NCBI GenBank assembly: GCA_030603385.1
Contig: JAUVXW010000015.1
Span: 1-64,000, forward strand
Origin: Promethearchaeota archaeon
Lineage (GTDB): Archaea > Asgardarchaeota > Lokiarchaeia > Sigyniarchaeales > SOKP01
Length of the DNA: 64,000 bases
Direction: 5' to 3'
Shown: one piece after another, positions 10,121 through 21,953 of the stretch
Layout: each line of letters opens with the position of its first letter
How positions within the stretch are numbered: position 1 is the first letter of the stretch
Notes under the pieces: model-generated
What the model saw: the letters and a program-made list of their open reading frames with translations, nothing else
Database searches by the model: none
What the model was told of the DNA's origin: nothing
Position numbers and translations under genes: made by a program

Positions 10121-11104
10121 ATGGAAAAACTTCCAAGCATGGGTCGATTAACACAGATTCTAAAAAATTACTTTAATGAAGTTGAAGGTATTTTAGGTGT
10201 AGCTATATGTGATCGAGATGGACTTATTATTGCCTCAGAATTCAAGGAAGGAAATGAAGAAGAATCAGATTCAATTATAGGAGCAATTTCTGCTATGCTT
10301 GATAATTATATAGACCGGATTAAAAGCGAGTTTGGGACAAAAGGGAGTTTTTTTAATATGACCGCAACAGGAGATAAAAAGTTTGCTTTTTGCTCAGAAG
10401 GTCCACAATCTATTTTGACAACGGTTGCAGATCAATTCACAAGTGATAATGCATTAAAGGTATACTCAGCACATATAGCTGGAAAAATAGAATTAATTCT
10501 AGAAGGTAATGAAGAAGTTACTCCAGAGATCCCTGAGATTATAAAAGCATTAGCTAAAACGAGAGAGGGAGAACTTCCAAGAATGGCAGGAGAGTATTCA
10601 CATAAACTAATTTTGACCGGAGATTATCAGGTAGGGAAAACATCACTTATCAGAAGGTTTGTTAAGAATACGTTTCAAGGAGATTATATCTCAACTATTG
10701 GGGTTCAATTATCTAAGAAATCAGTTGATTTAACAGATAAAATAAAGATGAACTTCATTATTTGGGACATTGGAGGTCAGAATTTCCAGATGGCTCCTTA
10801 CAGAACAAAGTTCTATAATGGTGCTAATGCCGTATTTATCGTGATAGACAGATCTCGTCAAGATAATCTGAAGAGTGTTGAAAAATGGTATACTGATATT
10901 AAAAGATCAACAGAAAAAAATATTCCCATAGTTATTGTTGGAAATAAATCGGATTTAATCGATCAGTTAGTAATAAGTGAAGATGATATCAAAGAAGTTG
11001 CTAAACAATTTGGTTTTCACTATATTCTTACTTCTGCTAAGACAGGAGAACACGTGAACGATGCATTTTTATACATCGCTTATAGAGTAATTGAGACTCT
11101 TTAA
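10121..11104 (+). CDS. Roadblock/LC7 - Rab-like small GTPase fusion
   Basis: N-terminal VEGILGVAICDRDGLIIAS..IGAISA roadblock; GDYQVGKTS, TIG, WDIGGQ, GNKSD, TSAKTG. Confidence 0.9.
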   Translation: MEKLPSMGRLTQILKNYFNEVEGILGVAICDRDGLIIASEFKEGNEEESDSIIGAISAMLDNYIDRIKSEFGTKGSFFNMTATGDKKFAFCSEGPQSILTTVADQFTSDNALKVYSAHIAGKIELILEGNEEVTPEIPEIIKALAKTREGELPRMAGEYSHKLILTGDYQVGKTSLIRRFVKNTFQGDYISTIGVQLSKKSVDLTDKIKMNFIIWDIGGQNFQMAPYRTKFYNGANAVFIVIDRSRQDNLKSVEKWYTDIKRSTEKNIPIVIVGNKSDLIDQLVISEDDIKEVAKQFGFHYILTSAKTGEHVNDAFLYIAYRVIETL

Positions 11105-11270
11105 TCTCAAAGATGCAAACTTTTTTATGATTTCTCATTCTTTTAAATAATTGATAAATTAATCGAAATAAAATTTAAAATTCAAAATTATTAAAAGGAG
11201 GTTAAAAAAGATAGTAATTAAGGTAGATTGGCACGATGTGCTCACAACTTGAGATGCTGCTGGATATGTC

Positions 11271-12131
11271 ATGGGATTTTCAATAAGAGAGCTTACTTAC
11301 AAGGGAAAATATCTCGTGTATCTTAGTGAACAAGAATTAACAGGTCCTTGGTTCAGTTTTAAATTAGAAGGTAAAGGGATTGGTACAATTCCAGTCATTC
11401 TTAAAAATATAGAACCGACACCAATATATAACATGGTAAATACTCGAAAGGGGACTGCAATAAGTAGAATTACCTTGGATTTTAATATCACAGAATATCT
11501 CAAGAAACTGGTTAAAGAAAACAAAATACAATCGATTTCATTGAAAAAAAAAGAATTTGTTAGGGTGTACAAGGATATTTTTAATCCCCCTCAAGTTCCG
11601 TATATCAGTACTTTCTTTACTATGAAAAATATCTCAGATTTTGCCCTGAAAGATTTTTCTATGTATTTTATATTCGATTTTGATATAAATGGACTTGAAG
11701 GTTATGATAATGATCTATCAGGGTATGACGAAGAAAATGACATTATTTACCAATATGATAATACAGGTTTATACGGTGGATTCTCTCCCCTTTCTAAATC
11801 AACTAATTACCAGTCATGCTTAATAAAGGATTTCACAATCAATCAAAAAAAATTGAATCTTTCTAATACATTACATAAAGGTCCTGGAGAAATTTTATCT
11901 GCTTTACAAATTGAATTTAAGACATTGGAACCTGACCAATCTTTTCAAACAGCAATAGTCATTTCTGGAGGATTTAGTAAAGAAGAATTGATTGAAAATA
12001 TTAAAGAAGGAAAAAATAACGCAATGAAACATTTACATCAAGTAAATCGATCAATCAAATCAGAACAGCGTAATCTTCAAGAGGAAGCATTTATTAAAAT
12101 TAATCTCCAGCAGGCAGAAGATTGTGAGTGA
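11271..12131 (+). CDS. Hypothetical protein, probable beta-sandwich domain
   Basis: Long ORF; MKN...L.DF..YF.FDFDI...ND...YD....IYQYD pattern suggests a beta-rich fold; no function assigned. Confidence 0.7.
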   Translation: MGFSIRELTYKGKYLVYLSEQELTGPWFSFKLEGKGIGTIPVILKNIEPTPIYNMVNTRKGTAISRITLDFNITEYLKKLVKENKIQSISLKKKEFVRVYKDIFNPPQVPYISTFFTMKNISDFALKDFSMYFIFDFDINGLEGYDNDLSGYDEENDIIYQYDNTGLYGGFSPLSKSTNYQSCLIKDFTINQKKLNLSNTLHKGPGEILSALQIEFKTLEPDQSFQTAIVISGGFSKEELIENIKEGKNNAMKHLHQVNRSIKSEQRNLQEEAFIKINLQQAEDCE

Positions 12132-12353
12132 AAGAAATCCATAATAATGACTCAAATAAAAAAACCCTGTGTGGAAAGTTATTTGATGAAAACCTTGCTC
12201 GGGTATGGATTTGTTATAATTAAAAAATTAAAAAATTTGAAAGAAAGAAAATAATAAAATTTTAGAAGAAGCTTTTTTAGGAAGAGATTAATAAATTAAA
12301 ATACAAAATACAGATAACATTATTATCGTTTGAAAAATTTCACTAAATTATTA

Positions 12354-12359
12354 AGGTGA
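12354..12359 (+). promoter_or_regulatory. Shine-Dalgarno-like AGGTGA, 6 nt upstream of a proposed ATT start
   Basis: AGGTGA-atcctc-ATT TTA AAT; same spacing as canonical starts elsewhere in the window. Confidence 0.6.
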
Positions 12360-19685: not shown

Positions 19686-19883
19686 TTTACAGCATCCCTT
19701 TTAATAAAAAAGTTAAAATGATATTCTTTGTAATAAAGTATAGAGTATGAGGTATATAATGTTATAGGTATCACATATCGGATAATGCAATTATATATTT
19801 TATTTCTTTTTTTTAAAAATCACAGAATTTATAAATAAAATCTTTACTTATTGAGTTAACAAAGATACTGCTTTTATTTAATT

Positions 19884-19889
19884 AGGTGA
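19884..19889 (+). promoter_or_regulatory. Shine-Dalgarno-like AGGTGA, 6 nt upstream of a proposed ATT start
   Basis: AGGTGA-cataaa-ATT TTA AGA CAA. Confidence 0.6.
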
Positions 19890-19895
19890 CATAAA

Positions 19896-21953
19896 ATTTT
19901 AAGACAAGTATTAATCTATAAAGACTCCAATCTCATTTACAAAAGGACATACGGTATAACTATAGACTTTGAAGTTTTTAAAAATCTAATAAGTGGTATG
20001 TTTTCAAAAGTGGTTGAACAAATTTATCATATAGATTATGAAAATTATAGAATTTCTTTTGTTATAGAGAAAGATTTTAGAATTCTATTTTTATTTGTTC
20101 ATGACAAAAAAGATGATTTTATCCTTATAAAAAAAGAATTAACTAACTGTAAAGAAAAATTTTTGAAATCGTTTAAAAACATTTTAGACCAAAAAATTGA
20201 CCCAAGCAGTTTAAACAAATTTAGCGTAATGGTTGATTCAATTCAAAATAAATTACCAGCGATACTATCTCTTGTAGGTTATGATGGAGTTGGTAAAACT
20301 ACTATTACAAATCTAATTAGATCAAAAGAAATCCCCATAAAACCAGCTCTACAAATCACTGGAAATATTGCAACATTAAAAATTGGAAGCTTAAATTTCA
20401 TATTAAGGGATTTTACTGGGGAACAAGATGTTGGTTTCTTATGGAACAATTTCATAAGAGGGAGTGATCTTATCCTACTTGTTACAAATTCTACTCTGGA
20501 TAATGTAGAAAACAGCAGGTTTTTCGTAAAAAAGATAGAAGAAGAAATACCAAATGCCCTTGTTATTGTATTAGGAAATAAACAAGATCTTGAAGATACT
20601 TTAAAACCACAAGAAATTGAGGATATATTAGAATTAAAAACACATGGATTAATCGCAATAGATACAGTAAATCGAGATAAGCTAATCGAAATTATAATGA
20701 ATACCATGCAAACCCAAGATATCACCACCCCATTGTTAAGTATGTCTAATGAAAGAGAAATTCTAATAAAGGAATTGGACAATGCAATACTTCAGACCGA
20801 CTTTGAAAAGGCGGAAATCCTTTATAAAAAAATTATAAGGATTTGTCTAGATCTTGGAGATAATCCTCTAAATATGGAATTTTATAAGAGTTATCAAGGA
20901 ATTCAGGATAAGTTAAAAGCTATTGGACCTAAACAAGAATTAGCAGAACCTCTAACAACAACACAAGATCACCAACTAAAGAGCATTAGTTCATTGGAAG
21001 GTCGTTTAAAAACATTATTGATTAATTATATTAAAAGTCTTGAAGGAATTTTAACAGTAATCATTAGTGATAGAGAGGGTTTTGTTATAACTTCGGAAAG
21101 TAGACAGGATGCCGGGGATGAATCTCTATTGGGAGCAATAGCAGTTATGATGGATAGCTATATAGAACGAATTAAAAGAGAATTTGGGAACGAAACTACT
21201 TTTTTTAATATAACTACAATCAAAGAAAAGAAATTCACCTACGGTTCAATGGGAACGAGATCAATTTTATTAACAGTTTCCGATTTATCAACCAACGACA
21301 CAGAATTACGTGTTTATACTGAATACGTAGCGGAAAAGGTAGAATCATTGTTAAAAGGAAATGATAATGTTATACTTGAGATTCCCGAAATTATTAGATT
21401 ATTATCTAAAACTAAAAGTGGTATCTTACCAACGGGGGATTATCCATTTAAACTAATTTTAACTGGTGATTTTGCAGTGGGAAAAACCTCTTTAATTTCA
21501 AGATTTGTGCAGAATCTCTTTAAAGAAGATTATCATTCCACAGTAGGAGTAGATATTTCTAAGAAAATCGTAAAACTCGACGAAAATACAAAAGTTCAAT
21601 TCATTATATGGGACATCGGTGGTCAAATGCCTAAAATGGCACCCTATAGAAAAAAGTTTTATATGGGGGCAAATTGTGCTTTCATTGTATTAGACAGAAC
21701 CAGAGCAGATAGTCTTAAAAATGTCGATAAGTGGTATAATGAAATCAAAAATTATGTCAAAAAAGAAATCAATGTCATTTTAGTTGGAAACAAGTCAGAT
21801 TTATTAGATAAAATATTAGTTAGTGAAGAAGACATAAGAGATGTGGCAAATAAGTATAGATTTAACTATATAATTACTTCTGCTAAAACTGGTGAGAGTG
21901 TTAATGAGACGTTTTTATATATTGCTTATAAATTTTTAGCATCTTTGTTTTAA
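19896..21953 (+). CDS. Double small-GTPase fusion: longin-like + Arf-like GTPase + helical linker + roadblock + Rab-like GTPase (probable ATT start at 19896; first ATG at 19998)
   Basis: GTPase 1: GYDGVGKTT, RDFTGEQ, LWNNF, GNKQD. Roadblock: LEGILTVIISDREGFVITS. GTPase 2: GDFAVGKTS, WDIGGQ, NKSD, TSAK. Upstream frame reads LRQVLIYKDSNLIYKRTYG. Confidence 0.88.
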   Translation: MLRQVLIYKDSNLIYKRTYGITIDFEVFKNLISGMFSKVVEQIYHIDYENYRISFVIEKDFRILFLFVHDKKDDFILIKKELTNCKEKFLKSFKNILDQKIDPSSLNKFSVMVDSIQNKLPAILSLVGYDGVGKTTITNLIRSKEIPIKPALQITGNIATLKIGSLNFILRDFTGEQDVGFLWNNFIRGSDLILLVTNSTLDNVENSRFFVKKIEEEIPNALVIVLGNKQDLEDTLKPQEIEDILELKTHGLIAIDTVNRDKLIEIIMNTMQTQDITTPLLSMSNEREILIKELDNAILQTDFEKAEILYKKIIRICLDLGDNPLNMEFYKSYQGIQDKLKAIGPKQELAEPLTTTQDHQLKSISSLEGRLKTLLINYIKSLEGILTVIISDREGFVITSESRQDAGDESLLGAIAVMMDSYIERIKREFGNETTFFNITTIKEKKFTYGSMGTRSILLTVSDLSTNDTELRVYTEYVAEKVESLLKGNDNVILEIPEIIRLLSKTKSGILPTGDYPFKLILTGDFAVGKTSLISRFVQNLFKEDYHSTVGVDISKKIVKLDENTKVQFIIWDIGGQMPKMAPYRKKFYMGANCAFIVLDRTRADSLKNVDKWYNEIKNYVKKEINVILVGNKSDLLDKILVSEEDIRDVANKYRFNYIITSAKTGESVNETFLYIAYKFLASLF

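Follow-up and report, generated by a model that had tools for sequence, protein, structure and literature searches.

A candidate membrane-anchored longin platform linking giant surface proteins to small GTPases in Lokiarchaeia

A 64,000-nucleotide (nt) stretch of DNA from a Promethearchaeota archaeon (assembly GCA_030603385.1, contig JAUVXW010000015.1, positions 1-64,000; hereafter the window) contains, at positions 10121-21953, a cluster of five genes in which a giant receptor-like protein of 2090 amino acids (aa), P0001, is encoded among fusion proteins carrying small GTPase domains. The 2090-aa gene represents the fused version of a bipartite system that is common across Lokiarchaeia and further Asgard lineages and consists of a giant surface protein and a cytoplasmic module, which are usually encoded separately. 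We favour, with some reserve, the view that this module is a membrane-anchored longin platform coupling surface proteins to small GTPases. A first-pass annotation of the cluster, which had described the receptor tail as NPRL2/GATOR1-like, missed the main point: the tail belongs to a family that is common and mostly encoded on its own, and what constantly accompanies this family is a giant surface protein. The genome from which the window derives comprises 58 contigs and 3.9 Mb and is 94% complete. The window has a GC content of ~30%, and homologues of its proteins carry the labels Lokiarchaeia, Promethearchaeota and other Asgard names.

Results

The receptor gene and the split and fused forms of the system

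Hydropathy analysis of P0001 (13413-19685, minus strand) revealed an N-terminal hydrophobic segment at residues 13-38 and a transmembrane helix at residues 1611-1641, indicating a single-pass protein with an ectodomain of ~1575 aa, one transmembrane helix and a cytoplasmic tail of 450 aa. On the minus strand, the N-terminal signal/anchor segment (aa 1-35) occupies positions 19581-19685, the beta-rich ectodomain (aa 36-1612) 14850-19580, the transmembrane helix (aa 1613-1640) 14766-14849 and the juxtamembrane cytoplasmic linker (aa 1641-1723), a homologue of the tails of split surface proteins, 14517-14765. The ectodomain gave weak matches to the Pfam families DUF2341, Laminin_G_3 and CarboxypepD_reg, and is 70% identical to that of the orthologue in genome G243. 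Of its N-x-S/T sequons, 38 lie in the ectodomain versus none in the 450-aa tail; the surface proteins are probably N-glycosylated.

At E<1e-3, residues 1724-2090 of P0001, referred to below as the module, delineate a protein family comprising 360 representative clusters. The majority of its members are stand-alone proteins of 360-375 aa, typically 367 aa, that start at the longin domain described below, and all those whose database names were viewed are called 'hypothetical protein'. Of 301 genomes sampled across the phylum, 218 contain the module, among them 68 of 68 from the host's own taxonomic family; in certain other taxonomic families it is almost absent. In Lokiarchaeia-type genomes the stand-alone module gene is located directly 3' of a gene for a giant type I membrane protein (548 to 3332 aa or more), with the two genes overlapping or separated by 0-2 nt. 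The C-terminal transmembrane helix and tail of these partner proteins align with receptor residues 1613-1723 and share the motif IP.FVKK.R.MKK...SLLYPSKEE...W..LGLSL, which in the alignment of the receptor linker with the C-terminal tails of split surface proteins reads IP.FVKK.R.MKK...SLLY..KE...W.... When the host genome was searched with a profile of this tail, seven open reading frames were retrieved at E<1e-5, and all seven lie at most 3.5 kb from a module gene.

The host genome carries six full copies of the module, two of them inside the window. The second belongs to a paralogous split system (54702-62956, plus strand), in which three surface proteins with the same transmembrane helix and tail motif (54702-58385, 58605-60149 and 60182-61828) are followed without any gap by a stand-alone module (61829-62956, plus strand).

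At least five further genomes encode fused receptors (2096-3009 aa), with a tandem array of five in one of them; since the fused form recurs in several other genomes, the receptor arrangement is far above chance. In a quick maximum-likelihood tree (IQ-TREE), the fused modules formed one clade (SH-aLRT 99) nested among the split forms. The fusion is therefore real and derived, the stop codon between the two genes having been lost in the fused clade, and it reads as a Rosetta-stone statement that tail and module work together. On contig C9 of genome G210 (loci L057-L059, 430-472 kb), five tandem fused receptors of ~2655-2678 aa are bordered by a roadblock-GTPase gene and a P0003-like gene at one end and by a double-GTPase gene at the other.

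Predicted fold of the receptor tail and conservation of its loop motif

AlphaFold2 was run on the tail with a 78-sequence alignment and yielded a model with a predicted local distance difference test (pLDDT) score of 94.2 and a predicted template modelling score of 0.91. In this model a longin domain precedes two winged helices of the aaaabb type, in agreement with the two winged helix-turn-helix (wHTH)-like repeats noticed in the first-pass annotation. In tail numbering, juxtamembrane helices (8-58, pLDDT 86-98) precede a longin-topology domain (86-202), a first winged helix (~204-290), a linker helix with the second winged helix (304-404) and a helical hairpin (helices 409-418 and 424-449). 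Within the receptor, the longin domain corresponds to aa 1724-1843 (14157-14516, minus strand, as are the following), the first winged helix to aa 1844-1930 (13896-14156), the linker helix and second winged helix, to which a profile match with the archaeal wHTH protein PH1932 also points, to aa 1931-2046 (13548-13895) and the hairpin to aa 2047-2090 (13416-13547).

Foldseek searches with the whole tail placed NPRL2, NPRL3 and Npr2 chains of GATOR1/SEA at the top (E 2e-4 to 4.5e-4 over 290-447 columns), followed by chains of CPLANE, Mon1-Ccz1, DENND10, C9orf72-SMCR8 and FLCN; MglC (7ct3) was also among the matches. NPRL2-type chains likewise came first for the longin domain alone (Z 12.0), and a shape search of the ESM Atlas returned eukaryotic NPRL2 clusters (PF06218) first among named ones, with a template modelling (TM) score of 0.32 and 196 aligned residues over tail positions 79-450. 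The tail is not that of a DENN protein: DENND1B and DENND10 align with the longin part only, which in the module is followed by two winged helices and not by the core and downstream DENN lobes. By sequence, neither a single-sequence search of the tail nor a longin profile retrieved any longin or NPRL match among Protein Data Bank (PDB) chains, and no Pfam family, NPR2 included, matched the tail at E<=10.

The pattern with which the tail was said to begin, W1732-x4-G1737-x6-Y1744-P1745, is indeed present at residues 1732-1745 and is conserved over the 78 family members: the Trp in 70/76, the following Asp in 61/75, the Gly in 72/78 and the Pro of the Tyr-Pro pair in 77/78. The conserved longin loop reads W-D-[ED]-[RK]-x-G (more generally W-D-x-[RK]-x-G ... 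Y-P), with the same spacing as W33-D34 ... G38 of C9orf72.

Small GTPases and their linkage to the module

As the first-pass annotation had stated, and as Pfam matches and gene coordinates confirmed, the receptor gene is flanked by roadblock-GTPase fusions and is divergent from a double-GTPase fusion. P0002 (10121-11104, plus strand, 327 aa) and P0004 (12366-13337, plus strand, 307 aa from the ATG at 12414, convergent with the receptor gene) each combine a roadblock domain with a Ras/Rab-like GTPase. Pfam matches to Ras were strong in both (E 3.6e-38 and 4.2e-40, respectively), the N-terminal Robl_LC7 matches (E 1e-3 and 2.8e-4) fell below the gathering cut-off, and close homologues of both carry PF03259. 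The motifs of P0002 are canonical (G1 GDYQVGKTS, G3 DIGGQ, G4 NKSD). Across an AT-rich intergenic region (19686-19895), the divergent gene P0005 (19896-21953, plus strand, 651 aa from the ATG at 19998) encodes an Arf-like G domain (residues 91-234), a MAPKK1_Int/roadblock-like stretch (~337-375) and a Ras-like G domain (485-645). Its N-terminal half (19896-20732, plus strand) consists of a longin-like N-domain and the Arf-like G domain (Pfam Arf, E 1e-15), and its C-terminal half (20733-21953, plus strand) of a helical linker, a roadblock domain and a Ras/Rab-like G domain (Pfam Ras, E 1.1e-45) close to P0004, whose roadblock part matched P0005 with E 2.6e-48 in phmmer. The G1-G5 motifs are legible in the sequences of all three neighbours, and each of the three was found to join an N-terminal Robl_LC7 domain to a complete Ras-superfamily G domain, the combination that defines a roadblock/LC7-small GTPase fusion. 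None of them ends in a C-terminal Cys.

Two homologues of the N-terminal half of P0005 stand out: a GTPase of the host genome whose gene is enclosed by two receptor-module pairs (39% identity, E 7e-71) and a GTPase that is operonic with a module in genome G006 (36% identity, E 1e-44). In the Arf-like domain of P0005 (residues ~134-140, window 20290-20310), where G3 is DFTGEQ, as well as in the further double-GTPase fusions P0395, P0400 and P0414, G3 reads DFTGE/D and not the family consensus DFAGQ; because the catalytic Gln is missing from the sequence, the Arf-like domain of P0005 may be hydrolysis-deficient.

Linkage between module and GTPase genes was conserved across genomes and lineages, and about five distinct arrangements or lineages exhibit the adjacency. 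Among seven fused clusters, six are accompanied by a gene for a roadblock-GTPase or a double GTPase at a distance of at most 1.2 kb; the orthologous locus in G243 has a GTPase gene on each side, and a 306-aa orthologue of P0004 occupies the same convergent position at locus L019. On contig C10 of the host and in its relatives in G207 and G228, a longin-Arf-like GTPase of 344-349 aa is placed between two receptor-module pairs. In three other taxonomic families of the phylum (f9, f10 and f21), the stand-alone module gene is located 0-36 nt upstream of a gene for an N-domain plus Arf-like GTPase of 280-285 aa that is homologous to the N-terminal half of P0005, and in f9 the two genes overlap. A GTPase gene is the immediate neighbour of 13 of 52 sampled modules and lies within 5 kb of 25 of them, at a GTPase gene density of ~1 per 48 kb in the host genome. 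Clusters of these longin-Arf-like GTPases in the ESM Atlas align structurally with the longin domain of the module; hhalign, comparing the longin profile with the N-domain profile of the Arf-like GTPases, gave a probability of 0.4%, so that no relation is detectable at the profile level. Co-folding of the module with the N-terminal half of P0005, GTP and Mg returned a score of 0.00, which is evidence neither for nor against binding.

Further genes of the cluster and the window

Between the two roadblock-GTPase genes lies P0003 (11271-12131, plus strand, 286 aa), a conserved protein without known family: it had no Pfam match, and the ESM Atlas returned archaeal hypothetical clusters only. A 289-aa protein with 68% identity to it is encoded in the corresponding place in G210, adjoining the roadblock-GTPase gene and the array of fused receptors; P0003 showed no detectable similarity to a 275-aa protein at the equivalent place in L019. 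P0003 may be a further component of the system. Small to medium-sized coiled-coil proteins also recur beside the GTPase genes of the system (window 22117-22905; L056, 13328-14071; downstream in L071 and L090-L093), with sizes of ~110 aa in the f10/f21 operon and 247-262 aa in the window and G243, and these may be effectors.

The starts assigned to P0004 and P0005 at 12366 and 19896 are ATT codons, each located 6 nt after a Shine-Dalgarno-like GGTGA (window 12354-12368 and 19885-19898), with the first ATG 16 and 34 codons downstream, respectively. Orthologues of P0004 with 322 aa begin with MNSL at the residue equivalent to the ATT, and ILRQV at the ATT start of P0005 aligns with MLRQV of its homologues. 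As the Met of the homologues sits at exactly those residues, both ATT codons are probably real non-AUG starts.

The cluster is surrounded by unrelated genes coding for restriction-modification methylases, a GH4 glycosidase, imidazoleglycerol-phosphate (IGP) dehydratase and GH38. DNA methyltransferase genes (Eco57I/N6_Mtase type and N6_N4_Mtase) stand on either side of it (5762-7669 and 23086-24165), with no evident link to it. Elsewhere in the window, a 352-aa protein (49774-50832) resembles the module profile in its longin part over the first ~117 residues (E 1.4e-13), the rest being a coiled coil with weak KASH_CCD/ATG16-type matches. Two adjacent paralogues at 3081-5543 each combine some seven hydrophobic segments with a soluble C-terminal domain that is conserved; hhalign between the longin profile of the module and the seven-transmembrane protein at 3081-4223 gave a probability of 0.15%, lending no support to a relation.

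Discussion

The structure of the genes, the predicted fold, the distribution of the family, the relation of split to fused forms and the linkage of the genes are shown above; for binding, nucleotide-state effect and signalling direction we infer the following scheme. The conserved short tail of the surface protein would hold the module at the membrane, covalently so in the fused clade, and in the split forms, the arrangement of most genomes, the surface-protein and module genes are adjacent and translationally coupled. The module would act as a longin/roadblock-type platform that recruits, and probably regulates, anchor-less small GTPases with an N-terminal longin or roadblock domain, the first candidate partner being the longin-Arf-like half of the divergent double GTPase and the next the roadblock-Ras-like fusions. 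The W-D-x-[RK]-x-G loop would face the G domain and contribute to the nucleotide pocket as that of C9orf72 does, so that the module might help to set the nucleotide state as a co-regulator, that is, as part of a GTPase-activating protein (GAP) or a GEF (guanine nucleotide exchange factor) rather than as an arginine-finger GAP, any arginine coming from elsewhere. Events at the ectodomain, such as ligand binding, cell contact or clustering, would thereby be coupled to local GTPase switching, or the reverse.

Several observations weigh against this proposal. No GTPase gene was found within 5 kb of 27 of the 52 sampled module loci, among them the second locus of the window, where the nearest 38 kb around the split system (54702-64000) contain none. 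As about half of the module loci are thus without a nearby GTPase gene, the universal partner of the module is the surface protein and not the GTPase; moreover, because kin genomes are not independent, fewer independent observations stand behind the linkage than its counts suggest. The lead of NPRL2 over generic longins in the structural comparisons is at most one Z unit. Within the loop, [RK]1735 is present in only 56/77 members, and the residue after the motif Gly is Ala, Val or Thr, so that the Pro of the 'GP' motif is unconserved. The longin domain has no conserved arginine (no column exceeds 56% Arg over the 78 members), and its beta4-beta5 loop, a position judged by topology and not by residue-level superposition, bears a conserved Gly and not an Arg. 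A GAP or GEF role of the module is a putative one.

The module and an Arf-like GTPase might alternatively form a biogenesis or anchoring factor, serving the targeting, insertion, sorting or positioning of the adjacent giant surface protein without any signalling, much as the SRX longin domain of SR-alpha pairs with the Arf-like SR-beta. The stop/start overlap of surface-protein and module genes in many genomes, the co-occurrence of tail motif and module in 7/7 cases in the host genome and the many loci without a nearby GTPase gene would all suit such a factor, and the partner Arf-like GTPases match SRPRB weakly (E 7.4e-6), with one distant homologue named SR-beta. In the fused clade, however, the module stays covalently on the mature protein, which is more in keeping with a permanent cytoplasmic domain than with a factor that acts transiently in targeting. 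Furthermore, the W-D...G loop is of a class reported for GTPase-regulating longins, and the specific neighbours of the fused clade are roadblock-Ras-like fusions, for which the signal recognition particle offers no analogy. We regard a pure biogenesis role as unlikely, while giving it more weight than the explanations that follow.

The module could also be a true GATOR1-type GAP, an orthologue-grade relative of NPRL2/NPRL3 that dimerizes with a paralogue and stimulates GTP hydrolysis by its neighbours. In NPRL2 and NPRL3, which Pfam lists as NPR2 (PF06218) and NPR3 (PF03666), at least two winged HTH repeats of the aaaabb kind come after a longin domain (Levine et al., 2013, PMC3747258), and the module has the same domain order. 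NPRL2/Npr2 chains are its best named structural matches in both PDB and Atlas, pairs of module paralogues flank a single longin-Arf-like GTPase on host contig C10 and in G207 and G228, and Asgard 'NPRL2-like longin' families have already been reported (10.1101/2020.10.19.343400). Both groups are moreover tied, genetically or physically, to small GTPases carrying roadblock or longin domains. The NPRL2-like architecture put forward in the first-pass annotation thus stood with respect to domain order and top Foldseek, Z and Atlas matches, but failed in other respects. NPR2 was not among the 25 most-matched of the 110 Pfam families matched by the 78 members, and did not match the six-frame translated host genome at E<=1. 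The longin domain lacks a conserved arginine where the longins of NPRL2 (Arg78), FLCN and SMCR8 have a universally conserved finger (PMC12290439). When the winged-helix half was folded alone, the NPRL2/3 C-terminal domain was absent from its best 50 matches in Foldseek and further structural comparisons, although this does not prove that the folds differ. Rag/GATOR-type partners, which had also been suggested, were not found: for the G domains encoded nearby, Ras and Arf give the best matches and Gtr1_RagA much weaker ones, and an N-terminal roadblock or longin domain accompanies them, whereas the roadblock of Rag GTPases is C-terminal; no IML1/DEPDC5 homologue scored above cut-off in the host genome at its 94% completeness. 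In contrast to NPRL2/NPRL3, moreover, the tether of the module is a giant surface protein of the cell membrane and not a lysosome. Orthologue-grade GATOR1 function therefore seems to us less likely still.

That the module is a membrane-tethered or sequestered transcription regulator, whose winged helices bind DNA and which is released or held by an outside signal, we consider improbable. The family profile matches the archaeal wHTH regulator PH1932 with E 6.8e-5, some members match HTH_20, HTH_5 or TrmB, and a gene for a TrmB-wHTH plus coiled-coil protein (from 62975; 650 aa in the full contig) follows the stand-alone module of the window on its 3' side. DNA binding is nevertheless made less credible by the acidity of the winged helices: the mean net charge is -10.6 for the module, -1.2 for the first and -2.4 for the second winged helix, the recognition helix of the first winged helix in P0001 starts with an Asp conserved family-wide, and both recognition helices are acidic or hydrophobic. 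In the fused clade, moreover, the module is permanently membrane-anchored, and the same fold in NPRL2/3 and in ESCRT-II (endosomal sorting complex required for transport II) binds protein and not DNA. An ESCRT-II-like adaptor, also raised in the first-pass annotation, whose tandem winged helices would bring membrane-remodelling proteins, of the ESCRT-III type or others, to the surface protein, is very improbable, for although human Vps22 (2zme_A) was the best Foldseek match of the winged-helix half, ahead of ArsR-type wHTH proteins also retrieved, the match was weak (E 4.7e-3, 199 columns, TM 0.22), no EAP30/ESCRT-II Pfam match was found for the tail or among the 25 most-matched families of its 78 relatives, no ESCRT genes were present in the neighbourhoods, and ESCRT-II subunits have no longin domain.

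For the co-regulatory platform that we favour, C9orf72 offers a close parallel at the level of the loop. Its W33-D34 ... G38(-P39) is functionally essential, belongs to a motif class reported only for GAP longins, and is found in the finger-less partner of the CSW (C9orf72-SMCR8) GAP (PMC12290439). The module shares W-D-x3-G in the beta1-beta2 loop with identical spacing and likewise has no arginine finger of its own, but its C-terminal half consists of two winged helices and not DENN lobes, and the Pro after the Gly is unconserved. No SMCR8-like, arginine-bearing partner of the module was identified. Among prokaryotes, MglA-MglB (with MglC/RomRX) of Myxococcus likewise combines a Ras-like GTPase with a roadblock/longin-fold regulator without arginine finger and is linked to surface adhesion complexes; unlike the module, its regulator is a small soluble roadblock dimer without winged helices or fusion to a membrane protein. 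In plexins, which are single-pass receptors of eukaryotes, a large ectodomain bearing glycans is joined through one transmembrane helix to a cytoplasmic domain that acts as a GAP on Rap. The likeness to them is one of functional layout only, as their cytoplasmic fold is RasGAP-like and that of the module longin plus winged helix.

The building blocks themselves have been met before in the same phylum. Clusters of Asgard orthologues (asCOGs) with an 'NPRL2-like longin domain' were published from Thor and some Loki metagenome-assembled genomes (10.1101/2020.10.19.343400), GAP-longin motifs in Asgard proteins have been published as well (PMC12290439), and roadblock-Ras-like and longin-Arf-like Asgard fusions are described in earlier reports (Liu et al., 2020/2021; Klinger et al., via PMC4917890; Tran et al., 2024). 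The module family could not be mapped to a published asCOG, and in the literature searched we found no description of a surface-protein coupling or fusion of a longin module with two winged helices, of the conserved tail motif or of a module-GTPase operon. The coupling to surface proteins thus appears to be new; the longin and fusion GTPase kinds had been reported previously.

Asgard genomes encode dozens of small GTPases and longin/roadblock proteins, and which targets these GTPases have and how they gain access to membranes without an anchor are open questions; Dey et al. (2016; PMC4917890) named as an outstanding question the use of operons for identifying what the small GTPases of Loki act on. 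For one large family, the locus described here and its relatives provide a concrete and testable answer. They hint that, in the archaea most closely related to eukaryotes, the cell surface is commonly linked to GTPase switches in a way that has gone undescribed. On their cell bodies as well as on protrusions, cultured Lokiarchaeia bear 'complex surface proteins' (PMC9834061), and because such proteins are displayed there, the system may connect these surface structures to intracellular switches. It is a more doubtful proposition that the system constitutes a receptor-coupled small-GTPase pathway at the archaeal membrane that shares ancestry with eukaryotic NPRL2/3-type longin regulators. If the module were truly NPRL2/3-related, the eukaryotic longin complexes that sense nutrients or contacts would trace back to receptors of the archaeal plasma membrane. 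Should such a receptor-coupled pathway exist, it would show how Asgard GTPases without lipid anchors reach membranes, and outside-in or inside-out signalling via longin platforms and Arf/Ras-like switches would predate endomembranes and have been in place in Asgard archaea.

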